64,000 nucleotides of DNA. Origin: Candidatus Levyibacteriota bacterium (lineage in GTDB: Bacteria; Patescibacteriota; Microgenomatia; Levybacterales; UBA12049). Each line of letters starts with the position of its first letter. The first letter of the stretch is position 1. Shown piece by piece: positions 1,962 to 48,024 of the stretch. Location: assembly GCA_018061075.1 (NCBI GenBank), contig JAGOUW010000002.1, positions 38,944 through 102,943 of the forward strand, given 5' to 3'. The notes below the pieces were generated by a model. It was not told the origin of the DNA and searched no databases. It worked only from the letters and a program-made list of their open reading frames with translations. The translations under genes and the position numbers were made by a program.

Positions 1962-2519
1962 ATGTCAAAAATTGCTAAAATACCAGTTGAAATAAAAGAA
2001 GGGGTACAAGTTACTCTAGAAAATAATGGTGTAAAAGTAGTTGGATCTAAAGGAGATCTCTTCTTTGGAATCCCAAATGGAGTTGCTGTAAAAATTGAAG
2101 AAGGAAATGTTTTAGTTACAACAACTGACCAAACTGAAAGATCCAGAGCTTTATCAGGATTAGTAAGAGCATATGTAGCAAATATGGTAAAAGGAGTTAG
2201 CGTTGGATTTTCTAAGAAGCTTGAAATGACTGGAGTAGGATATAGAGCACAGGCTTCAGGAAATACTTTAACTTTAGCAGTTGGATTTTCTCATCCGGTA
2301 ATTATTAAAGCAGATTCAACAATCACTTTTTCTGTTGAAGAAAATGTTGTTACAGTTAGCGGTATGGATAAAGCAATTGTAGGAAATGTAGCAGCACAAG
2401 TTAGAGCTGTGCGTCCTCCTGAGCCATACAAAGGAAAAGGAATAAAATATCAAGGTGAGCGAATTAGAAGAAAAGTTGGAAAAGCAGCAAAAGCAGTAGG
2501 AGCTGCAGGAGCAAAATAA
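1962..2519 (+). CDS. rplF: 50S ribosomal protein L6 (uL6)
   Basis: 185-aa ORF with SKIAKIPVEIKEGVQV...VVGSKGDL and PEPYKGKGIKY motifs. Operon position fits. Confidence 0.95.
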   Translation: MSKIAKIPVEIKEGVQVTLENNGVKVVGSKGDLFFGIPNGVAVKIEEGNVLVTTTDQTERSRALSGLVRAYVANMVKGVSVGFSKKLEMTGVGYRAQASGNTLTLAVGFSHPVIIKADSTITFSVEENVVTVSGMDKAIVGNVAAQVRAVRPPEPYKGKGIKYQGERIRRKVGKAAKAVGAAGAK

Positions 2520-2520
2520 T

Positions 2521-2856
2521 ATGAACGCAACAAAAACAAGAAGACAATTAAGAACAAGAACAAGTATTACATCTAGCGCAGACAGACCAAGACTAACTGT
2601 TACAAGATCTAATAAGTATGTTTCAGCACAGCTTATTGATGATATTAAAGGAGTTACTTTAGTTGGAATGAGTCAAAAAAACCTAAAAACTAAAGGAACA
2701 AAAACGGAAAGCGCAAAAGCGTTAGGACTTGAAATGGCATCTAAATTAAAAGCTAAAAAAATTACAAAGATCGTTTTTGATAGAGGTAGTTATAGATATC
2801 ATGGTAGAGTTAAGAGTATCGCAGAAGGACTACGTGAAGGAGGAGTTGAATTCTAA
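2521..2856 (+). CDS. rplR: 50S ribosomal protein L18 (uL18)
   Basis: 111-aa ORF with RPRLTVTRSNKYVSAQLIDD and FDRGSYRYHGRVKSIAEGLREGG motifs. Confidence 0.93.
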   Translation: MNATKTRRQLRTRTSITSSADRPRLTVTRSNKYVSAQLIDDIKGVTLVGMSQKNLKTKGTKTESAKALGLEMASKLKAKKITKIVFDRGSYRYHGRVKSIAEGLREGGVEF

Positions 2857-2857
2857 A

Positions 2858-3358
2858 ATGGCAGACGCTAATTTTACAAATCAAATAGATAGACGTTCAG
2901 ACGAATACGAAGAAAAAATCGTACAGGTGAGTCGTGTGTCTAAGAAAACAAAAGGTGGAAACAAAATAGGATTTTCAGTAATTGCAGTTGTTGGTGACCG
3001 AAAAGGAAAAGTTGGAGTTGGACTTGGAAAAGCTCCAGATGTTTCTTCAGCAATTAAAAAAGGCGTACTCGCTGGGAAGAAAAATTTAGTTGAAGTACCT
3101 ATTATTAATGGAACAATTCCTTTTGAATTTTATATAAAACTTGGAGCAGCTAAAGTTCTTCTAAAGCCAGCACCTCCTGGATCAGGTGTAATCGCTGGAG
3201 GAGCTGTAAGAAGTGTAGTTTCGGCTGCAGGAATTCAAAACATTTCTTCAAAAGTTTTGGGAACAAAAAACCAAGCAAGTAATGTTTATGCAGCAGTGGA
3301 AGCATTAAGACTTTTATCAATTAGATATAAAAGAGAACAAGAAAGGAAATCTAAATAA
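2858..3358 (+). CDS. rpsE: 30S ribosomal protein S5 (uS5)
   Basis: VSRVSKKTKGGNKIGFSVIAVVGDRKGKVGVGLGKA is canonical uS5. I place the start at ATG 2858 (MADANF...), 1 nt after the rplR stop. The tracked ORF start at 2777 would overlap rplR by 80 nt. Confidence 0.93.
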   Translation: MADANFTNQIDRRSDEYEEKIVQVSRVSKKTKGGNKIGFSVIAVVGDRKGKVGVGLGKAPDVSSAIKKGVLAGKKNLVEVPIINGTIPFEFYIKLGAAKVLLKPAPPGSGVIAGGAVRSVVSAAGIQNISSKVLGTKNQASNVYAAVEALRLLSIRYKREQERKSK

Positions 3359-3810
3359 TGGCACTTCATAGTCTACAAAAAATAAAACATCCGACTAAGA
3401 AAAGACTTGGACAAGGACATGGTTCTGGAAAAGTTAAAACTTCTGGTCGCGGAACTAAAGGGCAAAAAGCAAGAAATAGTGTACCTACTTATTTTGAAGG
3501 AGGAGCATTGCCACTAATTAAAAGACTTCCTTTCAGAAGAGGAAAAGGTAGAAATAAGAGTTTTAGAAACGTGCCTTTAGTCGTTAACTTAAAAAATTTA
3601 GAAGTTTATAAAAAAGGCCAAGTTGTAGATTTGGAATCTTTAATAAAAAATAAAATTGTTAAAGAGAGCGACGCAAAAGAATTTGGTGTTAAGATATTAG
3701 GAGACGGAGAAATTAAAGAAGCATTAACAATAAGAGTCGCAATTTCAAAAAGTGCGCTTCAGAAAATTGAAAAAGCAGGCGGCAAGCTTGAAGCAAGCGA
3801 AAAAAAATAG
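3358..3810 (+). CDS. rplO: 50S ribosomal protein L15 (uL15)
   Basis: 150-aa ORF with GHGSGKVKTSGRGTKGQKAR motif. Its ATG overlaps the rpsE stop (TAATG). Confidence 0.93.
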   Translation: MALHSLQKIKHPTKKRLGQGHGSGKVKTSGRGTKGQKARNSVPTYFEGGALPLIKRLPFRRGKGRNKSFRNVPLVVNLKNLEVYKKGQVVDLESLIKNKIVKESDAKEFGVKILGDGEIKEALTIRVAISKSALQKIEKAGGKLEASEKK

Positions 3811-3822
3811 TCCGGAGTTTAA

Positions 3823-5109
3823 ATGGAGAACCTTTTAAGATTATTTAAAAACAGTTTCAGGGCACCAGACGTCCGACGAAAAATACTTTTTACGGCTTTT
3901 ATTCTCATAGTATTCCGCGTTTTTGCACACATCCCCGTATCAGGAGTCGACCTCATTCAGCTAAAAGCATTATTCGCTCAAAACCAATTACTTGGTTTGC
4001 TCGACATTTTCTCGGGTGGAACTTTAGCTAATTTTTCTGTAATGGCGCTAGGACTTAATCCATACATTAATGCGTCTATTATTATGAATCTTGGAGCTTT
4101 AGTTTTCCCAAAACTTGAAGCACTTCAGAAAGAAGGAGAAGCCGGAAGACAAAAAATAAATCAATACACGAGATTTTTAACTGTTCCTCTTGCTGCGGTT
4201 CAAGCAGTTGGAATGTTTGCCCTTCTTAAAAGTCAGGGAATAATCTCAATGAATAATCCAATCGAGATTGTTTCATTTATTTTAACTATGACTGCTGGCA
4301 CAATGCTTCTTGTTTGGCTTGGAGAGCTTATTACAGAAAAAGGAGTTGGAAATGGAATTTCAATCATAATTTTTGCAGGAATTGTGGGAAGACTTCCAGT
4401 TATTCTTGGTCAAACTCTCACTACTACATCTTCCCAAAATCTTTTTAATGTTCTAAGTTTTGCAGTGATGGGGCTCGTGGTAATTTCTCTAATAGTAGTT
4501 GTGAATGAAGCAACTAGAAGAATAACTATTAATTACGCAAGAAGAGTTAGGGGAAATAAAATGTATGGAGGTCAGTCTACTCATTTGCCGCTTAGATTGA
4601 ACCAAGCCGGAGTAATTCCAATTATTTTTGCAGTTTCACTTGTTCTTCTTCCAAGTCTTTTTGCAAATTATTTAACTGCATCAACGAATCCTGCTTTAAG
4701 AGGAATTGCGACAAATATCGCAGTTTGGTTTAACCCAGACGGCAGTATTTATAACATTCTTTATTTCGTTTTAGTCGTAGTGTTTACTTATTTCTACACA
4801 GCGGTCGTATTTAATCCAAAAAAGATTTCTGAAGAAATTCAAAAACAGGGGGGATTTGTTCCTGGAATTAGACCTGGAGCAGAGACAGCAAAATACTTAG
4901 GATATGTTCTCTCAAGGATTACTTCGGGAGGTGCTTTATTCTTAGGACTTGTCGCGATTCTTCCAGTACTTGGAAGATCAGTTACAAATGTTCAAACACT
5001 TTTACTTGGAGGAACAGGAATCTTGATCGTTGTTTCAGTAGTATTAGAAACTATTAAATCAATTGAAGCACAACTCGTCATGAAAAACTATGAAGGTTAC
5101 CAAAAGTAA
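3823..5109 (+). CDS. secY: Preprotein translocase subunit SecY
   Basis: 428-aa polytopic membrane protein (about 10 hydrophobic segments) with typical SecY strings [12 protein letters not shown] and [11 protein letters not shown]. Sits after rplO. Confidence 0.95.
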
Positions 5110-5133
5110 CCAAAACACTAAGGGGTGATTTTT

Positions 5134-5667
5134 ATGAAAATAATTTTAATAGGAATTCAAGGATCTGGAAAATCAACTCAGGGAAATATTCTTTCTGAAA
5201 AACTTGGAATTCCTTATCTCTCAACTGGACATATTTTTAGAGATTTAGCTAAGGAGCATTCAACGCTTGGTCGCCAAATAAAGCTTGTTATGAATGCGGG
5301 ACTTCTTATTTCAGATAAAAAAACAAATCAGATTGTTAGCGATTATCTTTCTCGTCCAGAGTATGAAAAAGGTTACATCATGGACGGATATCCAAGAACT
5401 TTAGTTCAGGCTAAGAGTTTTAAAAATGGAATTGATAAAGTAATTTATTTAAAGATTTCTGACAAAGAAGCTTTATGGAGAATTTCAGGAAGAGAAGCAG
5501 AAAGAGAAGATGAAACGTTGCTCGCGATCCGAAAGAGAATCGACTTATTTCATAAGTTTACAGAGCCAGTTATCGAATATTACAGGGAAAAAGGAAAAAC
5601 AGTAGAGGTAAATGGGGAACAGTCAGTTGAAGAAATAACTAAAGAAATCCTAAAGAGTCTTAAATAA
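5134..5667 (+). CDS. adk: Adenylate kinase (short form, no zinc LID)
   Basis: P-loop GIQGSGKSTQ, then YLSTGHIFR and GYIMDGYPRT motifs. Start placed at ATG 5134 behind SD AAGGGGTGA (the tracked ORF starts at GTG 5125). Confidence 0.9.
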   Translation: MKIILIGIQGSGKSTQGNILSEKLGIPYLSTGHIFRDLAKEHSTLGRQIKLVMNAGLLISDKKTNQIVSDYLSRPEYEKGYIMDGYPRTLVQAKSFKNGIDKVIYLKISDKEALWRISGREAEREDETLLAIRKRIDLFHKFTEPVIEYYREKGKTVEVNGEQSVEEITKEILKSLK

Positions 5668-5672
5668 ACCCC

Positions 5673-6221
5673 ATGAATAAAGTAATAGCCATAGTCGGAA
5701 TGCCCGGAGCTGGTAAAAGTGAAGCGAGTAGTTTTTTTATTGAAAAAGGATTTGAGCGAGTTTATTTTGGATCTGTAATTGTTGACGGGTTAGTAGAGGA
5801 AGGATTGGAAAGAACAGCTGAAAATGAGGCTTATTATCGAAAAAAAATTAGAGATGAGCTTGGAATGAATGCTGTTGCTATTAAATTGCTCCCAAAAATA
5901 AAACAAAACATTTCTGAGGGTAAAAAAGTTATATTGGATGGGTTATATTCATGGGAAGAATACACATTTCTAAAAAAAGAAATATCCAATTTGTATCTCC
6001 TAGCAATTTATGCAAGGCCAGCGATCCGTCATCAAAGACTATTGGAGAGAAAAGAGAGGTCTTTTACGGAAGAAGAAGCTGAGAAGAGAGATGCTGATGA
6101 GATAGAAAAATTAAACAAAGGTGGCCCAATAGCATATTCTGATTATTTAATTAAAAATGAAGGTACAAAGGAAGAGTTTTATCAAAATCTGGGAAAGTTT
6201 TTAGAGGTAGAAAATGGTTGA
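5673..6221 (+). CDS. Second P-loop nucleotide/dephospho-CoA-kinase-like protein (resembles archaeal UPF0200-type kinases)
   Basis: 182-aa ORF with Walker A GMPGAGKSE at residues 9-17, a DG...(L)YSWEE mid motif and a C-terminal acidic helix. The family assignment is from memory of archaeal UPF0200/CoaE-like proteins and is not verified. Confidence 0.5.
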   Translation: MNKVIAIVGMPGAGKSEASSFFIEKGFERVYFGSVIVDGLVEEGLERTAENEAYYRKKIRDELGMNAVAIKLLPKIKQNISEGKKVILDGLYSWEEYTFLKKEISNLYLLAIYARPAIRHQRLLERKERSFTEEEAEKRDADEIEKLNKGGPIAYSDYLIKNEGTKEEFYQNLGKFLEVENG

Positions 6222-6972
6222 TATTAAAACACCAGAAGAAATTGAAATTATGAAACACGGAGGGAAAATTCTCTCAGATGTTTTGTGGGAAGTTTTAGAC
6301 TCAGTTAAGCCAGGAGTTAGCGAATTAGATGTAGAAAGACTTGCTGACAGGTTAATTGCAGAAAAAGGTGGAGAAGCTGCATTTAAAAGAGTAAAAGGAT
6401 ACAAGCATGCGACATGTATTTCTACGAATAATGTAGTTGTTCATGGAATTCCGAGTGATTATAAATTTAAAGATGGGGATATTTTAGGAGTTGATTGTGG
6501 AGTTTTTTATAAAGGATTTAATACGGATATGTCCCATTCTATAATTGTTGGGAAGAAAAAGGATCCCGCTGTTGTTAAATTCCTGGAAACTGGAGAAAGA
6601 GCACTAAACGAGGCTATTAAACAGGCTGTTATTGGTAACAGAATAGGTCATATCTCAAAAACCATCCAAGATATAGTGGAAAAAGATGGTGGATATGGGG
6701 TAGTTAGGGCTTTAATTGGTCATGGTGTCGGTAAAGAGCTTCACGAAGAGCCAGAAGTCCCAGGATATTTAGCTAAGAAAATCGAGAAAACAGCGCTTTT
6801 AAAAGAAGGAATGACTATAGCAGTTGAAGTGATTTACAACATGGGAGGTCATGAAGTTTCTTATTTAAGTGATGATGATTGGACTATTTCGAGCTCAGAT
6901 GGGTCGCTTTCAGGGCTTTTTGAGAGAACAATTGCGATAACTAAAGATGGTCCTTTAATATTAACCAAATAG
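6214..6972 (+). CDS. map: Methionine aminopeptidase type I
   Basis: 252-aa ORF with metal-ligand context VVHGIP, GVDCGVFYKGFNTDMS, IGHGVGKELHEEP and EVIYN. Usual position after adk. Confidence 0.93.
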   Translation: MVDIKTPEEIEIMKHGGKILSDVLWEVLDSVKPGVSELDVERLADRLIAEKGGEAAFKRVKGYKHATCISTNNVVVHGIPSDYKFKDGDILGVDCGVFYKGFNTDMSHSIIVGKKKDPAVVKFLETGERALNEAIKQAVIGNRIGHISKTIQDIVEKDGGYGVVRALIGHGVGKELHEEPEVPGYLAKKIEKTALLKEGMTIAVEVIYNMGGHEVSYLSDDDWTISSSDGSLSGLFERTIAITKDGPLILTK

Positions 6973-7076
6973 TGAGGCTGTAGGTTGCTCTTTCTAGGCT
7001 CGTTTGATATAATAACAAAACAAAATCTCAAAATTGCAACCTCAGGTTCAATGAGGTTTAGTTTTGAATTTTTTTT

Positions 7077-7295
7077 ATGGCACATCAGGGGTCGTTTGAA
7101 GTAGAAGGAAAAGTTTTGGAATCTCTGCCTAATACATTGTTTAGGGTGGAGCTTCCGGACGGTAGAATTATTATCTGTCATCTCTCAGGGAAAATGAGAA
7201 TGCATTTTATTAAGATTCTACCAGGAGACCGAGTTAGAATTGAAATGACACCATATGATGAGTTAAAAGGAAGGATTACCTTTAGGTTAAAATAA
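7077..7295 (+). CDS. infA: Translation initiation factor IF-1
   Basis: 72-aa ORF; [45 protein letters not shown] is canonical S1-fold IF-1. Confidence 0.95.
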
Positions 7296-7296
7296 C

Positions 7297-7410
7297 ATGA
7301 AAGTACAAGCAAGTGTCGGACCAAGATGCACAAAATGTAAAATAATTAAAAGACGTGGAGTCGTAAGGGTTATTTGTGATAATCCAAGACACAAGCAAAG
7401 ACAAGGCTAA
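7297..7410 (+). CDS. rpmJ: 50S ribosomal protein L36 (bL36)
   Basis: Not in the ORF track (too short). ATG 7297 translates to [37 protein letters not shown], 37 aa with the C-x2-C...C...H pattern. It sits between infA and rpsM as in most bacteria. Confidence 0.9.
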
Positions 7411-7412
7411 TT

Positions 7413-7808
7413 ATGAGAATTTCAGGAGTAACTATACCAGAAGAAAAGAAATTAGAAATATCGCTAGCTTATATTTATGGCGTAGGTAGGAATAATGTCC
7501 ATAAAATTCTTGAACTAGCTAAAGTAGACGGCGCAAAAAGAGTAAACACTTTAACTGAAGAAGAGCAAAAAAGAATTCAGCAGGCACTAGAAGGATATAA
7601 AATAGAAGGAGACCTAAGAACAGAAGTAAACGGAAATATTAGAAGACTTAAAGATATAGGTGCATACAGAGGAATGAGACACGCTAGAAATTTACCAGCA
7701 AGAGGTCAAAGAACAAGATCAAATGCAAGAACAAAGAGAGGAAAGAGAGTCACAATTGGAGCTATCAAGAAAGAAGTAGCAACAAAAATGGGACTAGATA
7801 CTAAATAA
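7413..7808 (+). CDS. rpsM: 30S ribosomal protein S13 (uS13)
   Basis: MRISGVTIPEEKKLEISLAYIYGVG and YRGMRHARNLPARGQRT motifs. Confidence 0.95.
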   Translation: MRISGVTIPEEKKLEISLAYIYGVGRNNVHKILELAKVDGAKRVNTLTEEEQKRIQQALEGYKIEGDLRTEVNGNIRRLKDIGAYRGMRHARNLPARGQRTRSNARTKRGKRVTIGAIKKEVATKMGLDTK

Positions 7809-7810
7809 CT

Positions 7811-8209
7811 ATGGCAAAAGCAGAAGTTAAAAAAACAGTTACAAAGAAAAAAGTTAGTAGAATTACTGAGAGCGGTAAGGTTTATATTACTGCAACTTTT
7901 AATAATACACTCGTAACCTTTACAAATAATAAGGGTGATACTGTAGGTTGGAGTAGCGCAGGAGCATCAGGATTTAAAGGAACAAGAAAATCAACTCCAT
8001 TTGCGGCTACTACAGCTGTAGAGACAGTAGCAAAGAAAGCAATTGCTGGAGGAATGAAGAGTGTCGAAGTTTACGTAAAAGGTCCAGGAGCTGGAAGAGA
8101 TTCAGCGCTTAGAGCAATAAAAAGTGCAGGCTTGTCAATTCTTCAAATTGCAGACATTACGCCAATTCCACACAATGGACCAAGAGCAAGTAAGAAAAGA
8201 AGAATCTAA
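7811..8209 (+). CDS. rpsK: 30S ribosomal protein S11 (uS11)
   Basis: GKVYITATFNNTLVTFTNNKGDTVGWSSAG and TPIPHNGPRASKKRR motifs. Confidence 0.95.
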   Translation: MAKAEVKKTVTKKKVSRITESGKVYITATFNNTLVTFTNNKGDTVGWSSAGASGFKGTRKSTPFAATTAVETVAKKAIAGGMKSVEVYVKGPGAGRDSALRAIKSAGLSILQIADITPIPHNGPRASKKRRI

Positions 8210-8214
8210 ATATT

Positions 8215-8817
8215 ATGGGAAGATATACTGGACCAAAACATAAATTAAGTAGACGCGAAGGTGTAAATCTTTTAGATAAGACTTCTAATTCCTTAGCAAG
8301 AAGACTTAATATTCCACCTGGACAGCACGCAAGAAAAAGAAAGAAAAGACCATCAGAGTACGGAACGCAGCTTAGAGAAAAACAAAAAGCAAAAGTAACA
8401 TACGGAATTATGGAGAAGCAGTTCAAGAAGATGTTTAAGTTTGCAGAAAATCAAAAAGATGAAACAGGCGAGCTTTTAGTAGCTCTTCTTGAGACAAGAC
8501 TTGATAACGTAGTTTATAGACTTGGATTTTCAAGGTCTAGAGCAGGAGCAAGACAATTAGTGTCTCATGGACATGTTTTAGTAAACGATAAAAAAATCAA
8601 TATTCCATCATATCAATTAAAAGCAGATGACGTAATTTCAGTTGGCGCAAAATCTCAAGCAAATCCCTTAATATTACAGGCTATGGAAGAAAAGAAAGAG
8701 TTTGTGTCCTATGTTGAGCGTAAAGGAAGCGTGGGAAAGCTTTTGAGAATGCCAAAAAAAGAAGATCTAGAGGTCCCTTTCAACACTCAATTGATCATTG
8801 AATATTATTCAAGATAA
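8215..8817 (+). CDS. rpsD: 30S ribosomal protein S4 (uS4)
   Basis: MGRYTGPKHKLSRREG N-terminus and S4 RNA-binding domain (RLDNVVYRLGFSRSRAGARQLVSHGHVLVN). Confidence 0.95.
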   Translation: MGRYTGPKHKLSRREGVNLLDKTSNSLARRLNIPPGQHARKRKKRPSEYGTQLREKQKAKVTYGIMEKQFKKMFKFAENQKDETGELLVALLETRLDNVVYRLGFSRSRAGARQLVSHGHVLVNDKKINIPSYQLKADDVISVGAKSQANPLILQAMEEKKEFVSYVERKGSVGKLLRMPKKEDLEVPFNTQLIIEYYSR

Positions 8818-8834
8818 TGGTAGAATAAATCTTT

Positions 8835-9758
8835 ATGACAGAACCTAATTTCAAAGTTATCGAAGAAAAGCTTACAAACGACTACGGAGAGTTCGTAATT
8901 GAACCTTTGGAGCCGGGCTATGGCCATACCCTAGGAACAGCTATTAGACGTGTTCTTTTAATCTCTATTCCAGGAGTAGCTGTTACATCAGTAAAAATTA
9001 ACGGAGCAAAACACAGATTCTCTACAGTTCCGGGACTTAAGGAAAATGTTGTTGACCTTCTTCTAAATGTTAAAGGCCTAAACTTTAAGCTTTTAAATTC
9101 AAAAGACCAAAGCATAGTTAGGCTTTCTGTAAAAGGTCCAATGGAAATTACAGCAAAAAATCTAGAGTTACCAGAAGATGTAGAATTAGCAAACCCAGAC
9201 CATTATATTGGTACACTTGCTGATAAAAAAGCAAAGCTAGAGCTGGAAATGACAATTGAAAGAGGATATGGATATTCTCTATCAGAAGAAAGAAGAAGCA
9301 CATCTTTAGGAGTAATCCCAACTGATGCTATCTATTCCCCAGTTAAGAGAGTAAATTTCTCTGTTAGCGCAACTCGTGTTGGAAGACAAACAAACTTAGA
9401 TAAATTAAATCTAAGTATTTGGACAAACGGAGTTGTTTCACCAAAAGAGGCACTTGATCAAGCTGCAAGAACTCTAAATTCATATTTCCATCAAATATAT
9501 GAACCAAAAGCTGCAGATCATGTTGAATCAGATTCAGTTAGATCTGATATTCCAGACGCAACACTTAAATTAACAATTGATGAGTTAGATCTTCCAACTA
9601 GAATTTATAACTCACTTAGAAATGGTGGAATTGAAACAATTGGTCAATTAGTTGAAGCACCAAGAAAAGACCTCATCTCTATGCGAAACATGGGAGGAAA
9701 GTCTATTTCTATAATTGAAGAAAAGTTAAGAGAAAAGGGAATAGAGCTCTCAGCCTAA
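8835..9758 (+). CDS. rpoA: DNA-directed RNA polymerase subunit alpha
   Basis: 307-aa ORF with N-terminal assembly domain (GHTLGTAIRRVLLISIPG) and C-terminal domain (LDLPTRIYNSLRNGGIETIGQL). Position after rpsD. Confidence 0.95.
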   Translation: MTEPNFKVIEEKLTNDYGEFVIEPLEPGYGHTLGTAIRRVLLISIPGVAVTSVKINGAKHRFSTVPGLKENVVDLLLNVKGLNFKLLNSKDQSIVRLSVKGPMEITAKNLELPEDVELANPDHYIGTLADKKAKLELEMTIERGYGYSLSEERRSTSLGVIPTDAIYSPVKRVNFSVSATRVGRQTNLDKLNLSIWTNGVVSPKEALDQAARTLNSYFHQIYEPKAADHVESDSVRSDIPDATLKLTIDELDLPTRIYNSLRNGGIETIGQLVEAPRKDLISMRNMGGKSISIIEEKLREKGIELSA

Positions 9759-9845: not shown

Positions 9846-10340
9846 ATGAGAAAACAAGTTTTTGGACGAAAATTTAAAAGAGATAAAAATGAGAGAAAGG
9901 CATTATTTAATGGCCTGATTTCTGCTATGATTCTACACGGAAAAATTACTACAACAGAAGAAAAAGCAAAGTCTATTAAGGGAGATGTAGAAAAAATCGT
10001 AACAAAAGCAAAGAAAGATGAAGCAACAGCAAGAAGACTCCTTAAGGGAATAATTAAAGATCAAGAATTAATAGATAAAATGATAAATGAGATTGGACCT
10101 AGATTTAAAAATAGAGCTGGGGGATACACAAGAGTCATAAAAACAGGTAGAAGATTTTCAGATAACGCATCAATGGCTATAATGGAATGGGTTGAGGGCG
10201 AAGAAGTCGTATTGGTTTCAAAGCCTGAGAAGAAAGAAGTTAAGAAAATTGCTGCACCTAAAAAAGAAGTAAAAAAGCCAGCAGCTAAAAAGGTTGTTAA
10301 AAAAGCAGCAAAAAAGGAGACCCCTTCAAAGGGTAAATAA
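9846..10340 (+). CDS. rplQ: 50S ribosomal protein L17 (bL17) with Lys/Ala/Pro-rich C-terminal tail
   Basis: FGRKFKRDKNERKALFNGLISAMILHGKITTTEEKAK and GGYTRVIKTGRRFSDNA motifs, plus a roughly 40-aa KKEVKKPAAKK-type extension. Confidence 0.92.
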   Translation: MRKQVFGRKFKRDKNERKALFNGLISAMILHGKITTTEEKAKSIKGDVEKIVTKAKKDEATARRLLKGIIKDQELIDKMINEIGPRFKNRAGGYTRVIKTGRRFSDNASMAIMEWVEGEEVVLVSKPEKKEVKKIAAPKKEVKKPAAKKVVKKAAKKETPSKGK

Positions 10341-10343
10341 ATA

Positions 10344-10763
10344 ATGAAAGCAACAAAAGCTAACGAAATAAAAAGAGAATGGCATTTAATCGATGTTGAT
10401 GGAAAGACTTTAGGAAGAGTTTCTACGGAGATCGCAGGTCTTCTTATGGGAAAAGGGAAATCATATTTTGTTAGAAACTTAGATTGTGGAGACTTTGTAG
10501 TTGTTACTAATTCAAAAAAAGTTAAAGTAACAGGAAACAAGGAAAGTAAAAAATTATACAGACGTCACTCAGGATATCCAGGAGGATATAAAGAAGAAGT
10601 TTTAGGAGATTTAAGACAGAGAAGGTCACAAGATATAATTGTGCATGCAGTAAAGGGAATGCTTCCACAAAATAAATTAAGAGATCAAATGCTTGGAAGA
10701 TTAAAGGTTTACGAAGCAGAGACACATGAGTATAATGAAAAATTCAAAGGAGCAACAGCTTAA
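10344..10763 (+). CDS. rplM: 50S ribosomal protein L13 (uL13)
   Basis: REWHLIDVDGKTLGRVSTEIAGLLMGKGK and YRRHSGYPGG motifs. Confidence 0.93.
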   Translation: MKATKANEIKREWHLIDVDGKTLGRVSTEIAGLLMGKGKSYFVRNLDCGDFVVVTNSKKVKVTGNKESKKLYRRHSGYPGGYKEEVLGDLRQRRSQDIIVHAVKGMLPQNKLRDQMLGRLKVYEAETHEYNEKFKGATA

Positions 10764-10764
10764 T

Positions 10765-11238
10765 ATGGCAGAAGAATTAAAAACAACAGTTGGAGGAACA
10801 AAGAAATATAAAGACTTTATGTTTGCGGTTGGACGTCGTCGTGCAGCAGTTGCTAGAGTTAGGATTTATTCTAAGGTTCCAGATTCTCTAAAATTTGAAG
10901 AGATTGCAGTTAAAAAAGGAGACTTAGTAGTAAATGGAAGAATTATTTCAGAATATTTTGGTGGAGCTGTAGCAAAATCTAAATACGAGGCACCTTTAAA
11001 AACAGCAGATGCTTTAAATAAATATGCTGTAACTGCAAAAGTAGCAGGCGGAGGAACAACATCTCAGCTAGGAGCTTTTGTTTTAGGAGTATCTCGTGCG
11101 CTAGCTGCAATGGATGAAGGAGTTAAGCCAGCATTAAGAAAAAGTGGATTATTAACAAGAGATCCAAGAGTTAGAGAACGAAGAAAAGTTGGAACAGGTG
11201 GAAAAGCAAGAAGAACAAAGCAGTCTCCAAAACGTTAA
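10765..11238 (+). CDS. rpsI: 30S ribosomal protein S9 (uS9)
   Basis: GRRRAAVARVRI and C-terminal LTRDPRVRERRKVGTGGKARRTKQSPKR. Start placed at ATG 10765, 1 nt after the rplM stop (the tracked ORF start at 10726 overlaps rplM). Confidence 0.93.
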   Translation: MAEELKTTVGGTKKYKDFMFAVGRRRAAVARVRIYSKVPDSLKFEEIAVKKGDLVVNGRIISEYFGGAVAKSKYEAPLKTADALNKYAVTAKVAGGGTTSQLGAFVLGVSRALAAMDEGVKPALRKSGLLTRDPRVRERRKVGTGGKARRTKQSPKR

Positions 11239-11774
11239 ATTTTATTTTCCTCAATCATTACTTTTACCCAAGGTGCAAGGTTTTTATATATTCGAGATTT
11301 TTTATCAGTTAATTCCTTTTTACTCACGAGTAGCGAGTCATAAGAAAAATCTAAATTTGGTTCTGGTTTGCTTTCAGCTTCAGCTGTGATTACATCGCAA
11401 AGTTCATGTTCTGTAAATTCACTATTTTTGTCTTTTGCCTTGTAATAAATTGGTCCCAGGTTTTTTAAATTTTTTAAATATTTTTTATTTAAATTCCATT
11501 CTCTTTCTAAGCATTTAATCGTAGCTTCCTCTGTGGTTTGTAATTTTCCATTAATAAATAATTGATGTGATGAAGAAGTGACATCATAAACTTTATCAAA
11601 TGCTACATGTTTTCTGTGTTGAACAATAAATTTTCCATTGAAGATTAGTGCTACAGTTAGAGCTTTATGTAGAATTCCTTTTTTGTGTGCTTCCCATTTT
11701 TCAATTTCCCCAAGAATATTTCCATCTTTATCAATACTCGCAATAAATTGTTTTTCTTTATAATAATCTAGCAC
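11235..11774 (-). CDS. Nudix-fold protein resembling type-1 isopentenyl-diphosphate isomerase
   Basis: The string EKWEAHKKGILHKALTVALIFNGKFIVQHRK...DVTSSSHQ...EHELCDVITAE...LAPWV aligns by eye with E. coli Idi (LHLAFSSWLFN...TNSVCGHP...ENEVCPVF...SPW). It appears co-transcribed with uppS. The Cys of the Idi SVCGHP motif is Ser here. Confidence 0.5.
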   Translation of the reverse strand: MLDYYKEKQFIASIDKDGNILGEIEKWEAHKKGILHKALTVALIFNGKFIVQHRKHVAFDKVYDVTSSSHQLFINGKLQTTEEATIKCLEREWNLNKKYLKNLKNLGPIYYKAKDKNSEFTEHELCDVITAEAESKPEPNLDFSYDSLLVSKKELTDKKSRIYKNLAPWVKVMIEENKI

Positions 11775-12520
11775 TATTTACCCTCATTTCTTTTTGTTTG
11801 AGCATAATAGCTAATTGCTTCCACTAAATCTTCTTCAGTAACTTCTGGGAATAATTTATCTTCAGAGAAAAATAAAACAGAATGTTTTCCATTCAGAAAG
11901 CCTATGTCTGAAGTTCTTCTTTCAGATGTCCTAAAAATTAAATCAGCAGATCTGATTAAGCCTTCCGTATCTCTTAATTTCCAAATACTTTCCTCGTTTA
12001 TGTCAAAGTTTGCCTCCTTTGCTTTAGTCGCTGTTCGTACGTTTTGGTCTTCTCCTCCAAAGTCTAATGCAAGACAGACAATTTGTCCTTTATTGTCTTT
12101 TGTTTCCTCTTCTGCTTTTTCAATTTTTTCAAGTAAATTTTTTGGGAGTCTATCGCGGCGTCCCAGGTGCACAAATCTTGAGTTATATTCTTTGATTTCG
12201 TCTAAGTAATTATCGATTATAAAACCGAAAATCCTCATGAGGTTTTTTATTTCTGTTTCGTCTCTTTTCCAATTGTCAGAAGAAAATCCCCAAAGCGTAA
12301 CTACTTTTATAGGGAAAGGTCTAAAAAATCTAAGTAGATTAATAGCTACCTTAAATCCTTTTTCATGTCCCCAAAATGAGGGTCTATTATTTTTTTTAGC
12401 AAACCTTCTATTTCCATCAGGGATTATAAAGATATGTTTTGGAAAATTTTCCGGGAGAATTTTTCCAAGTGTGGGAAATTCTCCTATAGCCTTTTCTTTT
12501 TTTTCTGAAAGATCATTCAT
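11774..12520 (-). CDS. uppS: Undecaprenyl (cis-prenyl) diphosphate synthase
   Basis: HIFIIPDGNRRFAKK (the DGNRR/W motif), TLWGFSSDNWKR and FRTSERRTSD motifs typical of cis-prenyltransferases. Confidence 0.9.
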   Translation of the reverse strand: MNDLSEKKEKAIGEFPTLGKILPENFPKHIFIIPDGNRRFAKKNNRPSFWGHEKGFKVAINLLRFFRPFPIKVVTLWGFSSDNWKRDETEIKNLMRIFGFIIDNYLDEIKEYNSRFVHLGRRDRLPKNLLEKIEKAEEETKDNKGQIVCLALDFGGEDQNVRTATKAKEANFDINEESIWKLRDTEGLIRSADLIFRTSERRTSDIGFLNGKHSVLFFSEDKLFPEVTEEDLVEAISYYAQTKRNEGK

Positions 12521-12600
12521 TAAGGGTTAATTATAATTGAATTGAGGCTAAAGAACAAATTAATTTTACATTCTAAATTATATTCCATTACAATTAAATT

Positions 12601-14520
12601 ATGTCTGAGCCTGTGAATCCAATCGTTGAACAAGGTGTATCTGTTGATCAAGCCCCGGCGCCTGCACAGACAACTCCCCTTAAAAATCCAAATGCAGGAT
12701 TTCTTCGCACAATTAAAGTGGATGAGCCAGGAAGAATGTTAAGGGATATAGCAGATGCAGCGCCTACAGAGGCGGATGGAAGGTCCCCAGGGGTTTCAGT
12801 AGATATCGGCAATGGAATGCTTGGCCTAGAGCTTGCAGAGCCAGATCAGTCATTTAATTTGGGAAATATTTTTAGTTCTGATGCTTCAAATTTGGGGAAT
12901 GATAGATTCACTGGTGTATACATAGAAACTAAATCGGGGAATAGATATTTTATTGGCGGAGATTATATGAGGGGTCGCGTGGTTAATGCTTCCCAGAGTA
13001 GGGCATTGGGAAAACCTCATGCGATTGAATATAACGGAGAAACTCTTGCAAGAAGTAAAATCATAATCGGTAAGCCTTTAACTTATGGAATTGGATCTCA
13101 ATACACTGGAACCACTTCGGATGTTGTAAGGGCGACATTTATAAATGGCGGAAGAGTTTATGACCAGCAATATCTAGATGGATTAACTGGGGGTAAAAAG
13201 AGCGCAGCTGTAGAAGAGTTTGCAAGGGATTCTCAGCCTGACAAAGAGAGTTTGCAGGCGAAAACTGAAGCAGCTAGTCAACCAGAAGTAAATTTAGAGT
13301 CGATAAAAAGGCCTTTAACTGTTGAGGATGTAATAGAATTCCAAAGGCAATTTAGGAACTTTGATCAGGCGAGCAGAGCAGCAGGAAAAGCCTACCTGCT
13401 TAATGAAAATCAATATTATGAGTTTCTTAGCACTGGGGCATTTTATGGAGTTGAGAAGCCCGCAGGGCAAGAAGTAGACCTATTAACAGCAGAGGGAAAA
13501 CAGGCATACGATTCTCTACTTTTATCAACTTTTAAAAACTGGAGAGCGGCTCTTATCGCTGATCAAGCTAGGATCAGTAAGAAGCGCCCTGAGCTTACAA
13601 AACAGCTAGGTGATTTTAGAACGATTCCTGATCCACAAACTGCAGCAGAAGTTAGACAATTATATATAAATAATCCTGCATTAAATGAATTATCAGCGGC
13701 ACAATACCAGGATGGTCTTTCAGGTCAATTTGTTGAAAATAATTTTTTACATTTTCAGGGCCATAGAGCTAGTGGTTATCAGTATGAAAGGCCAAATACA
13801 GAGACTCGTGTTTATCTGAATCCGCCGGTGAATGAGGCTCCTAAGTTAGCTGCAGAATTTGTCAGAATTGCTACGGAAAGAGGTATTCCTTATTATTTCA
13901 AATTAATTGATTTTTCTTTACAGAAGCCATCACCCCAAGATTATCAAAGAGTAGATAAGATGCTTTTTTATTCAGATAAAGCAAATGCTGCCAAAATAGT
14001 AGGTGTTTTAGCCGAGATAAGATCTCAACATCCTGATTGGTTTGGTGGTCGATCTCTCCCTCCAATGGTAGCTAGGGTGATGGATGGAGTCGGAGTTGCC
14101 GAGGAGCCATCTCCATTTCAAAATCAAAAATTCAAAGTTCCAGGACACGAAAACACTTCATTCAATAGAGTTAGGGCAGCATATTTTGATAGACTATGGC
14201 CTGAGGTTATGAGAGAGGTTCTTATAAGAAATCCTGATATAAGACCACGCGGTGGCAGAACAATGAGAGAGATTTTTACAGATTTTGTTCCTGCTGAAAG
14301 TAGAGATCTGGTTGATAATTTATGGGCTAAAGGATTGAAAGCTGATGCAGATGACAGGCCGGCAAGGATGGCTTTAGATTATGCATTGAAGTATTCAGTT
14401 CAAGACGTGCTACCTGATATTAAGCCTGAATCACTATTGCCGTGGGTGCAAATGGTTTCTAGGAAGATTTCTCCAGATTTCGGAATTGATCCAAACAATA
14501 TTGCTGGTAACTCTAATTAA
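12601..14520 (+). CDS. Hypothetical protein, 639 aa, no recognisable family
   Basis: Long uninterrupted ORF with its own upstream region. No TM segment or signal peptide. Pro/Ala-rich N-terminus. Composition is richer in Arg, Gly, Pro and Ala than neighbouring proteins. See findings. Confidence 0.8.
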   Translation: MSEPVNPIVEQGVSVDQAPAPAQTTPLKNPNAGFLRTIKVDEPGRMLRDIADAAPTEADGRSPGVSVDIGNGMLGLELAEPDQSFNLGNIFSSDASNLGNDRFTGVYIETKSGNRYFIGGDYMRGRVVNASQSRALGKPHAIEYNGETLARSKIIIGKPLTYGIGSQYTGTTSDVVRATFINGGRVYDQQYLDGLTGGKKSAAVEEFARDSQPDKESLQAKTEAASQPEVNLESIKRPLTVEDVIEFQRQFRNFDQASRAAGKAYLLNENQYYEFLSTGAFYGVEKPAGQEVDLLTAEGKQAYDSLLLSTFKNWRAALIADQARISKKRPELTKQLGDFRTIPDPQTAAEVRQLYINNPALNELSAAQYQDGLSGQFVENNFLHFQGHRASGYQYERPNTETRVYLNPPVNEAPKLAAEFVRIATERGIPYYFKLIDFSLQKPSPQDYQRVDKMLFYSDKANAAKIVGVLAEIRSQHPDWFGGRSLPPMVARVMDGVGVAEEPSPFQNQKFKVPGHENTSFNRVRAAYFDRLWPEVMREVLIRNPDIRPRGGRTMREIFTDFVPAESRDLVDNLWAKGLKADADDRPARMALDYALKYSVQDVLPDIKPESLLPWVQMVSRKISPDFGIDPNNIAGNSN

Positions 14521-14522
14521 TG

Positions 14523-14593
14523 TCGGGGTGCCGAGAATCGAACTTGGACCACACGGCCCCCAGCCGCGCATTCTACCACTAAACTACACCCCG
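14523..14593 (-). tRNA. tRNA-Pro (anticodon GGG)
   Basis: Reverse complement folds as CGGGGTG-TA-GTTT-AGTGGTA-GAAT-G-CGCGG-CTGGGGG-CCGTG-TGGT-CCAAG-TTCGATT-CTCGG-CACCCCG-A. This gives a 7-bp acceptor stem, T-loop TTCGATT and anticodon loop CU-GGG-GG. There is one A:C mismatch in the T stem and G:U pairs in the D stem. CCA is not encoded. Confidence 0.8.
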
Positions 14594-39051: not shown

Positions 39052-39119
39052 TTTTTCTCTTCAACTTTATCCTTTTCTGTGTTACGATCTATTTAGCGCC
39101 TTTATTGGTGTTATAACCT

Positions 39120-40802
39120 ATGTTACTGCCCGATATAGAGATCCAGCAGCTAATGCTCCAATCAGGTTTGGTGGATACCAAAACCATGAGAGATGTATTG
39201 GTGTTTGCTGCCAATGCTAGAGTTCCTCTTCAGCAGGCCCTCATGGAAAAGGATGTAATTCCTGATGATAAATTAGGTGAGTTAATTGCAGCTCACATTA
39301 AGTATCCTTTCGTAGATCTTGAAAATATTACAATTCCAGAAGGAGTTTATCGAATAATCCCTGAAAGACTAGCTAGAAAACATAAGGCAATAGTTTTCGG
39401 AAAAGATGGAGAGGGTGTAAAGCTGGCTGCAGCTGACCCGGTAAATACGAAACTTGCAGAAATAGTTCAGAAAAAAACAGGACAGAAAGTTACAGTTTAC
39501 ATGGCGACTGAAAAAGATATTGATAATGTCCTTCAGCTTTATAGAAAAGATCTTCAGCAGACTTTTGACCAAATGCTTCAAGCAGAAATCACTAGAACAG
39601 CAACTAGTATGGATGACGCTCCGATTGCGAAGATTGTTGATCTTTTAATTACATACGCTTATCGCGATAAAGCTTCAGATGTTCATATAGAGCCAGAAGA
39701 GAAAAATTCTTTAGTTAGGTTTAGAATCGATGGAATTTTACATGATGTTTTATATGTAGACAAAAAACTTCATGACAGAATTACGACTAGAATAAAAGTT
39801 TTGTCCCGTCTTCGAACTGATGAGCATTTAAGTGCTCAGGATGGAAAAATGAGAATAGAAGTGGACGAGGAGAATCTGGATATTCGTGTTTCTATGATTC
39901 CAGTTACAGAAGGAGAAAAAGTAGTTATGAGACTTTTATCATCTAAGTTTAGACAATTTTCTCTTCAGGATTTGGGAATGAATGAAAAGGATCTTATAAA
40001 AGTAACTAACGCTATTAATAAATCTTACGGAATGATTCTCTCGACCGGGCCTACCGGATCTGGAAAAACTACATCAGTCTATGCAATCCTAAAAATTGTT
40101 AATACCAGGGAAAAAAATATTACTACCATTGAAGAACCAGTTGAATACAGAATTAAAGGGGTTAATCAAATTCAGGTAAATCCTAAAACTAATTTAACTT
40201 TCGCAAACGGGCTACGTTCTATTCTTAGACAGGATCCTAATGTTATTTTCGTGGGAGAAATTAGAGATTCAGAGACTGCTGGAATTGCTGTCAACGCCGC
40301 GCTTACCGGGCATTTGGTTTTATCAACTGTTCACACAAATGATGCTGCCACAACTCTCCCCAGACTTATTGATATGAAAATTGAGCCATTCCTGGTTGCC
40401 TCTACCGTAAACGTAATTATCGCGCAGAGACTAGTTAGAAAGATTTGCGATTCATGTAAATCTCCGGTTGTTTTAAGTCGAAAAGATGCTCTTAAGGACA
40501 TTCCCGATAATGTAATTTCCAAACACTTTGGTCCGCAGGATCAAATAAAAGTTTATGAAGGTAAAGGATGTAGGATTTGTCATGCCACAGGTTACACTGG
40601 AAGAATTGGAATTTTTGAAGTAATAGATATGTCAGAAAAAATTAGAGAATTAATAACTCAGAAAAGTGATTCAGACGAAATTGCAAAACAGGCAGTCGAG
40701 GAAGGAATGACGACAATGCTTGATGATGGAATGCAAAAAGTGGGTAAAGGAATGACGACAATTAAAGAAGTTCTAAGAGTTACAAAAGTAGAGTCAGGAT
40801 AA
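39120..40802 (+). CDS. pilB: Type IV pilus / type II secretion assembly ATPase (PilB/GspE family)
   Basis: N-terminal T2SSE_N-like domain, Walker A GPTGSGKTT, ILRQDPNVIFVGEIRD (Walker B/Asp box), His box GHLVLSTVHTN, and tetracysteine CDSC...CRIC. Confidence 0.92.
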   Translation: MLLPDIEIQQLMLQSGLVDTKTMRDVLVFAANARVPLQQALMEKDVIPDDKLGELIAAHIKYPFVDLENITIPEGVYRIIPERLARKHKAIVFGKDGEGVKLAAADPVNTKLAEIVQKKTGQKVTVYMATEKDIDNVLQLYRKDLQQTFDQMLQAEITRTATSMDDAPIAKIVDLLITYAYRDKASDVHIEPEEKNSLVRFRIDGILHDVLYVDKKLHDRITTRIKVLSRLRTDEHLSAQDGKMRIEVDEENLDIRVSMIPVTEGEKVVMRLLSSKFRQFSLQDLGMNEKDLIKVTNAINKSYGMILSTGPTGSGKTTSVYAILKIVNTREKNITTIEEPVEYRIKGVNQIQVNPKTNLTFANGLRSILRQDPNVIFVGEIRDSETAGIAVNAALTGHLVLSTVHTNDAATTLPRLIDMKIEPFLVASTVNVIIAQRLVRKICDSCKSPVVLSRKDALKDIPDNVISKHFGPQDQIKVYEGKGCRICHATGYTGRIGIFEVIDMSEKIRELITQKSDSDEIAKQAVEEGMTTMLDDGMQKVGKGMTTIKEVLRVTKVESG

Positions 40803-40804
40803 AT

Positions 40805-48017: not shown

Positions 48018-48024
48018 TCGATAA
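47557..48024 (+). CDS. Type IV major pilin, copy 2 (protein identical to copy 1)
   Basis: Same 155-aa translation. The DNA is identical to copy 1 except for the last two sense codons (TCT CGA versus TCA AGG, both Ser-Arg). Confidence 0.9.
   Translation: MTINCPKFLKKNSGFTLIELLVVIGILAILLSIVLIAINPARQFGQANNTKRRSDVTQILNAIGAFSADNKGVLPANIPLTTPQVIGDGVGQANICADILTTYIPALPRDPQTPGGDITSCTTYSTNYTVVKDANNRVTVAAPGAENGETISISR

Follow-up and report, generated by a model that had tools for sequence, protein, structure and literature searches.

A divergent HopA1/LanY-family protein with a predicted stand-alone phospholyase core in a Candidatus Levyibacteriota genome

Results

The window analysed in this study is a stretch of 64,000 nucleotides (nt) from a Candidatus Levyibacteriota bacterium (contig JAGOUW010000002.1, positions 38,944 to 102,943 of the forward strand). 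Between uppS and a tRNA-Pro(GGG) gene it harbours a complete open reading frame (ORF) encoding 639 amino acids (aa), which is called the lyase gene below, after the fold predicted for its product. The layout that an earlier note had read from the sequence alone was reproduced: the lyase gene diverges from uppS across a spacer of 80 nt, and its stop codon lies 1 nt from the 3' end of the convergent tRNA-Pro gene (Table 1). The deposited record with the identical protein is named 'hypothetical protein KBD51_01625' and belongs to a metagenome-assembled genome (MAG) of Candidatus Levybacteria.

The same note had described the product as an orphan of no recognised family, and this description had to be abandoned. 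Pfam-A assigned residues 380-506 to PF17914 (HopA1) with 37.9 bits, above the curated gathering cutoff of 22.7 (E = 2.2e-9, profile positions 8-124 of 170). HopA1 matches were also obtained for 21 of 26 close family members and for 65 of 80 more distant relatives. A word-indexed search returned four relatives, one of them full-length (P0002, 59% identity) and three lacking the first ~225 residues. An exhaustive profile search, covering 1.84 billion cluster representatives, retrieved 448 relatives at E<=1e-3. Of these, 72 passed 1e-10 and 28 passed 1e-30, and the 28 span the whole core of ~410 aa. A pattern scan of 185,579 species genomes with a five-member alignment found only 2 loci, and NCBIfam gave no match. 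The named relatives are from MAGs of Levybacteria, Magasanikbacteria and 'Patescibacteria group', and PGAP has named one more distant cluster of the candidate phyla radiation (CPR) 'T3SS effector HopA1 family protein' (T3SS, type III secretion system). The family name is therefore already present in the automated annotation of some CPR proteins; no paper tying HopA1/PF17914 to Patescibacteria was found in the literature that was searched. On its profile matches and its modelled fold, the protein belongs to the known HopA1/LanY family, as a divergent member.

An AlphaFold model was built on an alignment of 26 sequences. Its layout (residues 1-62 disordered, 63-210 beta-rich, 237-366 helical, 367-545 alpha/beta and 555-627 helical) agreed with the succession of disordered, beta, helical and alpha/beta regions that had been proposed from the sequence. 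The core, residues 230-639, was modelled with a predicted local distance difference test score (pLDDT) mostly above 90. In a Foldseek comparison with the PDB, the top matches were all phospho-Ser/Thr lyases (probability 0.92-1.0). They comprised LxmY, the lyase of the class V dehydratase of lexapeptide (9dk1_B, E = 3.6e-6), HopA1 (4rsx, E = 3e-5, template modelling score 0.59 normalised by target), the lyase domains within two class III synthetases, CuvL and ThurKC (8cav and 8sam, E ~1e-2) and the SpvC-like VirA (3bo6, E = 0.028, probability 0.92). According to the model, the OspF/SpvC-like alpha/beta lyase fold is present. Together with the Pfam match, these results bore out a resemblance to LanKC N-terminal and HopA1-like lyase domains that the earlier note had loosely suggested. 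Full-length sequence and profile searches of the PDB returned only troponin C, V-ATPase F and Rv2525c, which were judged to be chance matches.

The helical part of the core (~237-366) was kept in all 26 family members and lies within the Foldseek alignments to both LxmY and HopA1. The C-terminal region ends in a strand, G-I-D-P-N-N633-I-A, of which N633 is invariant. The Pro/Ala/Gln-rich N-terminus differs between relatives in both length and sequence. As had been claimed, neither a transmembrane segment nor a signal peptide was found in the protein, the maximum Kyte-Doolittle mean over 19 residues being 0.75.

A domain-only profile, made from 35 diverse lyase-domain segments, matched LxmY by sequence (E = 1.6e-5), and this was the sole sequence-profile match in the PDB. 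In the profile alignment, R403, K434, R450 and Y457 took the places of the LxmY residues given in Table 1, D452 fell on D233, and S520-F-N-x-x-R525 on the LxmY segment S-F-G-Q-H-R (of SFGQHRA). The spacings in LxmY (32, 10 and 7) are those of R187, K219, R229 and Y236 in CaoY. In CaoY, phosphate elimination was shown by mutagenesis to depend on R187 and K219 and to be aided by R229, lyase activity being lost in R187A; the four CaoY residues were equated with K104, K136, R148 and Y158 of SpvC, where the residue at the K104 position activates the carbonyl, K136 is the base for the alpha-proton and R148 binds the phosphate leaving group (PMC9486802). The motifs of the alpha/beta domain are F-L-H384, R403-V-Y405-L-N-P, Y-Y-F-K434, R450-V-D452, Y457 and S520-F-N-x-x-R525, and the pattern R-V-Y-L-N...F-K...D-K-x-x-x-Y, singled out in the earlier note, was found to hold the Arg, Lys and Tyr of the catalytic set.

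The residues R403, K434, R450, Y273, Q370, F382, P408, S520, R525 and N633 were invariant in the 26 members, and Y457 was highly conserved across the domain alignments. In the 80 more distant relatives, the Arg, Lys, Arg and Tyr positions were invariant or nearly so. By alignment, the catalytic set of R403, K434, R450 and Y457 is intact. This conservation bears on whether the protein might be a non-catalytic binder or scaffold that has kept the lyase fold, as has been discussed for HopA1 (binding EDS1 and kinases). The lack of the SpvC general-acid His would be compatible with such a scaffold, as would the fact that the mechanistic basis of the effector activity of Pseudomonas syringae HopA1 is unknown (PMC8153245). 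However, R403, K434 and R450 stay invariant in members down to ~22% identity, the four positions are held almost without change in the distant relatives, and the invariant polar residues S520, R525, Q370 and N633 suit an active site better. A scaffold was hence regarded as quite improbable, and a catalytic protein is preferred.

Ninety-six per cent of 1,340 HopA1-domain proteins adjoin a phosphotransferase, and the pairs define clusters like those for peptides that are ribosomally synthesised and modified post-translationally (RiPPs) (Eyles et al., PMC8153245). LanY is reported to be insoluble or inactive without its co-encoded kinase, with which it forms a heterodimer (PMC9486802). The surroundings of 13 independent loci were surveyed (ten from the close family, three from distant relatives), and un-annotated neighbours were rescanned at E<=0.1. 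A kinase or phosphotransferase (APH) domain was absent from all 13, so that the LanK/APH heterodimer partner (PF01636) of a class V dehydratase was found at none of them. Genes for a cyclase (LanX/LanC), a decarboxylase or a precursor peptide were not seen at these loci either, short precursor ORFs not having been searched exhaustively. No fused Pkinase or LANC_like domain was detected in any of the 106 relatives scanned, which showed HopA1 only, with a PP2C domain in one. In the window, no kinase was found near the lyase gene nor among ten further ORFs scanned, which include a UvrD/PD-(D/E)XK helicase-nuclease, SecA, a type IV pilus-like operon and two large ORFs without Pfam matches. As no kinase or phosphotransferase occurs at the 13 loci or is fused in the 106 relatives, this clade is a stand-alone form, as are the HopA1 and OspF/SpvC effectors and unlike LanY.

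The same survey bears on a second possibility, that the protein serves a RiPP dehydratase as its lyase subunit (LanY/TsaD-like), with the genes for the phosphotransferase and the precursor peptide lying in another part of the genome. This would agree with LxmY being the closest solved structure as well as the only sequence-profile match, with the reported pairing of HopA1-domain proteins in RiPP-like clusters, and with a radical-SAM gene about 2.6 kb downstream of the lyase gene in one relative (L027). It was nevertheless judged very improbable, because none of the 13 loci has an adjacent APH or protein kinase, LanC-like cyclase or RiPP tailoring gene, and LanY is reported to depend on its co-encoded partner. 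Moreover, CPR genomes are small, the neighbours are housekeeping or mobile-element genes, and the context varies by locus, so that there is no conserved operon. A lyase acting without a kinase of its own is preferred.

Table 1. Features of the lyase locus and other features of the window. Positions are those of the window; residue numbers are those of the lyase protein
Feature	Position	Strand	Remarks
179-aa ORF	11235-11774	-	overlaps the uppS stop by one base
uppS	11774..12520	-	divergent from the lyase gene
Promoter-like site TTTACA-18 nt-TACAAT	12565..12594	+	10/12 consensus match only
Lyase gene, complete ORF	12601..14520	+	ATG to TAA, 639 aa; N-terminal beta-module fused to HopA1/LanY-type lyase core (predicted)
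Residues 1-62, Pro/Ala/Gln-rich	12601..12786	+	predicted disordered; pLDDT 35-42; GC locally high
Beta-module, full span (residues ~55-215)	12766-13245	+	
Residues ~63-215, accessory beta-rich domain	12787..13245	+	domain model; motif PDQSFNLGNIFS..LGNDRFTGVYIETKSGNRYFI..IIGKPLTYG
Residues ~237-366, helical N-terminal part of lyase core	13309..13698	+	Y273 invariant; pLDDT about 90
Residues ~367-545, predicted alpha/beta catalytic lyase domain	13699..14235	+	Pfam HopA1 380-506
R403 codon	13807..13809	+	aligned to LxmY R189; CaoY R187 by conserved spacing
K434 codon	13900..13902	+	aligned to LxmY K221; CaoY K219, SpvC K136 by conserved spacing
R450 codon	13948..13950	+	aligned to LxmY R231; CaoY R229, SpvC R148 by conserved spacing
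Y457 codon	13969..13971	+	aligned to LxmY Y238; CaoY Y236, SpvC Y158 by conserved spacing
Residues ~546-639, conserved C-terminal helical region	14236..14517	+	pLDDT 88-96
tRNA-Pro(GGG)	14522..14593	-	convergent with the lyase gene
secA	36271-39051		followed directly by T2SSE
SecA/T2SSE/T2SSF type IV pilus-like genes	36271-41860		
990-aa ORF	42373-45345	+	no Pfam match; GC 0.40
First tandem 155-aa ORF	47084-47551	+	N-terminal methylation (pilin) motif
Second tandem 155-aa ORF	47557-48024	+	
1525-aa ORF	53332-57909	-	no Pfam match; GC 0.40

The N-terminal beta-module was modelled on its own with a pLDDT of 78 and a predicted template modelling score of 0.77. Its fold had no significant PDB match by Foldseek (best E = 0.29) and no Pfam match. 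Free-standing proteins of 149-227 aa that consist of the module were detected (P0182-P0188, E = 5e-34 to 3e-9), and G75, G99, D101, T110, N114, Y116 and T172 (window numbering) were invariant. Within the close family the module is fused to the lyase only in the lineage of the window, P0002 and P0006; a local hidden Markov model (HMM) also placed it N-terminal to the lyase domain in the very distant P0147 (E = 8e-13) and P0115 (E = 7e-11). By these sequence matches, the module is an independent, previously unannotated domain family. Because its fusion recurs in separate branches, a functional link between module and lyase is suggested, which may consist of targeting, regulation or partner binding. 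Three other assignments were rejected. An Sm/SH3-like fold reached a Foldseek probability of at most 0.13; an FHA-like phosphopeptide-binding module ('GGDR...SGN') was dropped, as the Arg is not conserved and no FHA signal was obtained in Pfam or Foldseek; and a likeness by eye of the N-terminal extensions of P0014 and P0022 to the beta-module was unsupported by the HMM.

The composition of the lyase gene had been called atypical and taken as a sign of acquisition. The underlying G+C counts were exact (48 per 100 nt in 12601-12700 versus 32 in 12241-12340), and the ORF ranked first of 62 ORFs in GC content (0.408 versus 0.352 for the window, z = 1.8), with recA just below (0.403). The excess was concentrated in the first 240 nt (0.49), which code for the disordered N-terminus, and was mostly at codon positions 1 and 2, reflecting amino-acid content. 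The synonymous codon usage was typical of the contig (distance 0.119 versus a mean of 0.152). Recent horizontal transfer, as judged from composition, was therefore rejected. The absence of Cys was likewise set aside as a functional signal, as the proteome contains only 0.44% Cys (P about 0.06) and many ORFs are Cys-free.

A full-length orthologue of 59% identity was present at the same locus in L004, where the same tRNA-Pro abuts its stop codon. Identities to the L004 counterparts were 59% for the lyase, 72% for uppS and 85% for recA. The ratio of nonsynonymous to synonymous substitution rates (dN/dS) against the 92%-identical copy in L005 was 0.128 over 478 codons, with 0.129 for the N-terminal part and 0.124 for the core, and 0.149 for uppS. 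The lyase protein has diverged faster than its neighbours, yet it is under purifying selection; the suggestion that it is fast-evolving holds in relative terms only. The ORF is a real, constrained gene. L005 (CAYXTY010000108.1, 2056 bp) is a copy of the uppS-lyase junction in a MAG labelled 'uncultured Gammaproteobacteria bacterium', and it is most likely a mis-binned CPR contig.

Gene order gave a different answer on acquisition from that of composition. L010 shows the order rpsI-uppS-tRNA-Pro(GGG)-recA with no lyase gene, uppS ending directly at the tRNA (identities to the window: uppS 43%, recA 72%). The lyase gene lies between uppS and tRNA-Pro in the window as well as in L005 (92%) and L004 (59%), and there uppS with its upstream partner is inverted. 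Judged from the sequences, tRNA-Pro(GGG) is the right edge of the inserted lyase gene. A tRNA also abuts the lyase gene in L006. No recombinase remnant was found in the window, and the lyase gene was flanked neither by att-like direct repeats nor by a second copy of the tRNA 3' end. As the codon usage is typical of the contig, dN/dS is 0.13 and no recombinase or att-like repeat is left, the insertion is an ancient one that has been ameliorated and maintained under purifying selection. The claim of acquisition accordingly stands on synteny and on the neighbours at other loci, and fails on composition. In L010, uppS (2132-3415) encodes 427 aa, an enzyme of ~240 aa with a helical C-terminal extension of ~190 aa that ends exactly at tRNA-Pro.

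Mobile-element genes were frequent at the other loci. A large serine recombinase (Resolvase + Recombinase + Zn_ribbon_recom) lies directly upstream of the lyase gene in L006 (676-2103), with a convergent tRNA-Gln and then T2SSE downstream. The order in L007/8 is recombinase (5777-7450 in L007), PemK toxin, lyase. In L009 the lyase gene adjoins a convergent recombinase (9940-11268), among genes for an ART-PolyVal protein, a DNA methylase and an S24 repressor-like peptidase. The recombinases of L006 and L009 are 62% identical, the accompanying lyases only 36%, and the two pairs of genes differ in their relative orientation. In L001, L002 and L007 the lyase gene adjoins toxin-antitoxin genes, and ParE, PIN and Fic toxin genes occur near the lyase gene at other loci. 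Further contexts were near a coupling protein of a type IV secretion system, between rpmH and dnaA, and between rplL and rpoB. The lyase gene belongs to an accessory CPR/Patescibacteria family that is often found beside large serine recombinases and toxin-antitoxin genes.

The lyase gene was also found shortly downstream of secA, in L002 (502-3195), L003 (516-3227) and the very distant L028 (3887-6607). In the window, secA is followed directly by T2SSE, with a spacer of only 68 nt. The region after secA may be a recurrent CPR insertion site or the ancestral position of the lyase gene. Adjacency to secA was dropped as evidence of Sec export, as the protein has no signal peptide, and was taken as a recurrent position or insertion region.

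These contexts suggest a third possibility, that the lyase is cargo of integrative mobile elements, acting in conflict between element and host or phage and host (defence or counter-defence) and not in interaction between symbiont and host. The recombinases adjacent in three lineages, the company of the lyase gene in L009 and the nearby PemK, ParE, PIN and Fic toxin genes are in line with this. Searches of defence and virus collections argued against it: there was no match in PADLOC, the only PHROGs match (E = 0.23) was not meaningful, a pattern scan of IMG/VR found no relative, and a fold search of BFVD gave a single low-scoring giant-virus match that was not convincing. On these outcomes, membership of an anti-phage defence or phage family was set aside. 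In addition, no recombinase or other element gene is left in the window, yet purifying selection on the lyase persists, and element cargo was considered distinctly unlikely.

A fourth possibility is an endogenous 'eraser' of the cell's own Ser/Thr phosphorylation, that is, a housekeeping regulator and not a conflict or effector protein. The setting among core genes (uppS and recA here; SecA, rpmH-dnaA and rplL-rpoB in relatives), the strong purifying selection, the native codon usage and the lack of a secretion signal could all be accommodated by such a role. It fits poorly with the patchy and rare distribution (28 of 1.84 billion representatives at E<=1e-30, and two loci in the species genomes scanned), with the absence of the gene from the syntenic L010 locus, and with the association with recombinases in three lineages and toxin-antitoxin genes in others. 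Irreversible destruction of phospho-sites would also be odd for self-regulation. An eraser was considered unlikely, and an accessory, kinase-independent lyase is preferred.

A promoter-like site precedes the lyase gene, its -10 element ending 6 nt before the ATG; the number of such sites in the region was not above that in shuffled sequence. No Shine-Dalgarno sequence was visible upstream of the ATG. Given the position of the -10 element and the lack of a visible Shine-Dalgarno, the transcript may be leaderless. As no terminator-like hairpin was found between the stop codon and tRNA-Pro, the convergent tRNA gene may also help to end transcription of the lyase gene.

The 179-aa ORF upstream of uppS probably forms an operon with it. 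Pfam gave nothing for it at E<=1e-3, and L012 and L013 have a weak homologue (27% identity) upstream of uppS. Relative to the rpsI-uppS orientation in L010, the ORF and uppS are inverted in the window. Among distant relatives, L032 carries a 686-aa HopA1-like gene (5501-8061) between rplL and rpoB, inside the conserved ribosomal-protein/RNA-polymerase string, and L033 carries two tandem HopA1-like paralogues of 630 and 1193 aa (3543-9576). The two loci share an upstream ORF of ~166 aa (50% identical, no Pfam match), which may serve that sub-clade as a dedicated partner. For the close family, a small partner conserved upstream, such as a chaperone or an immunity protein, was rejected: its small upstream ORFs are unrelated to one another, and only L032 and L033 share one.

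Elsewhere in the window, the 990- and 1525-aa ORFs have a relatively high GC content, the former coming after the type IV pilus-like genes, and they may encode CPR surface or host-interaction proteins. In codon usage, the tandem 155-aa ORFs deviated more than any other ORF of the window (distance 0.28-0.29).

Discussion

The findings above indicate that the lyase protein is probably, and with moderate confidence, a kinase-independent phosphoserine/phosphothreonine beta-eliminating lyase of the HopA1/LanY branch of the OspF/SpvC-like fold. Residues 233-639 (~410 aa) would represent the whole LanY/HopA1-type unit. If the chemistry follows that of CaoY and SpvC, R403 would polarise the backbone carbonyl of a phosphorylated Ser or Thr, K434, helped by Y457, would abstract the alpha-proton, and R450, probably with S520/R525 and H384 or Y405, would stabilise the leaving phosphate. 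The outcome would be the irreversible conversion of phosphoserine or phosphothreonine into dehydroalanine or dehydrobutyrine. Because no phosphotransferase lies beside this lyase or any relative, the substrate is presumed to be phosphorylated by some other kinase, as for OspF/SpvC-type effectors rather than RiPP dehydratases. The fused beta-module might supply substrate targeting, localisation or regulation, and the protein may play a part in interactions with hosts, competitors or mobile elements.

Several observations weigh against this interpretation. The general-acid His of SpvC (H106) is missing, its equivalent being Y405 here and Phe in LxmY, which leaves the protonation of the leaving group unexplained. 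The spacing from K434 to R450 is 16 residues, versus 10 in CaoY and LxmY. Full-length family profiles reached no lyase in the PDB, and only the trimmed domain profile did so. Since the basis of HopA1 activity is unknown, membership of the family is no proof of catalysis, and catalysis itself is something we infer from alignments and models. The search for a kinase partner covered the ORFs examined in the 64-kb window and 13 neighbourhoods, and a partner encoded further away in the genome is conceivable. The module carries no functional assignment of its own, and its role is likewise one that we infer. Finally, neither a secretion signal nor a demonstrated delivery route is present, and the effector idea, which the earlier note had raised for a host or the envelope, is speculative for that reason.

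The analysis turns a 'hypothetical protein' of Candidatus Levybacteria into an enzyme hypothesis with named residues (R403, K434, R450 and Y457). The clade departs from the reported rule of HopA1-phosphotransferase pairing, and the recurrent fusion with a module that also stands free offers a second handle on function.

The other known kinase-less lyases of the HopA1/OspF fold are virulence effectors, which inactivate the kinases of the host irreversibly. CPR bacteria are presumed to live as episymbionts, and the effector idea fits both that lifestyle and the logic of OspF/SpvC. As the means by which CPR bacteria manipulate their hosts are largely unknown, a stand-alone phospholyase that travels with recombinases appears by analogy to be a reasonable candidate for an effector or conflict protein. 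A broader proposal is that CPR/Patescibacteria carry mobile, recombinase-associated, kinase-independent lyases, some with the beta-module, with which these ultrasmall episymbionts, or their mobile elements, irreversibly erase phospho-marks on proteins of hosts, competitors or invaders. This is possible but doubtful; if true, these lyases would be a counterpart of OspF/SpvC for bacterial targets, with the beta-module as an adaptor for substrate recognition or delivery. Should the protein instead prove to be an eraser that serves self-regulation, or a RiPP enzyme left orphaned, the value of the assignment would be that of routine annotation.

Among known systems, the LanY lyases from the pathways of class V lanthipeptides and thioamitides (CaoY, LxmY and TsaD; PF17914) are of the same Pfam family, and LxmY is the best structural match. 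They have the same Arg/Lys/Arg/Tyr set, with Arg at the position of SpvC K104 and no SpvC-type His, and a core of comparable size (378 aa in LxmY versus ~410 aa) in which the catalytic Arg lies about equally deep. The lyase differs from LanY in having no LanK/APH partner, precursor peptide, cyclase or other RiPP genes at the 13 loci, in a Lys-to-Arg segment that is 6 residues longer, in Y405 where LxmY has Phe, in its extra N-terminal beta-module, and in its setting, CPR genomes in which it neighbours housekeeping or mobile-element genes. Lyase domains from class III/IV synthetases (CuvL, ThurKC) match in fold (8cav, 8sam) and perform the same beta-elimination chemistry, but in LanKC and LanL they are fused to a kinase and a LanC-like cyclase, a fusion that the lyase and its 106 relatives lack.

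HopA1 (HopPsyA), a type III effector of P. syringae (PDB 4RSW/4RSX), is the founding member of the Pfam family and likewise stands alone without a kinase. Unlike HopA1, the lyase has no evident T3SS, ShcA-type chaperone gene or T3SS-type N-terminus: the window ORFs that were examined included no T3SS genes, and there is no same-strand upstream gene in the window that could encode such a chaperone, uppS being divergent. HopA1 was not reached by the lyase sequence profiles, and the organism here is an uncultured CPR bacterium, not a plant pathogen.

The phosphothreonine lyases OspF, SpvC, HopAI1 and VirA have the same alpha/beta lyase fold and share the catalytic Lys, the Tyr and one phosphate-binding Arg. 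The lyase did not match the OspF/SpvC Pfam family, and no docking motif for mitogen-activated protein kinases or T3SS context was found. Of the SpvC triad K104-x-H106...K136 and Arg-rich pocket, only the equivalents of K136, R148 and Y158 are kept; K104 is replaced by Arg (R403) and H106 by Tyr (Y405), and most of the pocket is not alignable. The OspF/SpvC enzymes nevertheless stand alone and act on substrates phosphorylated by the kinases of other organisms, and this arrangement serves as the working model for the lyase described here.

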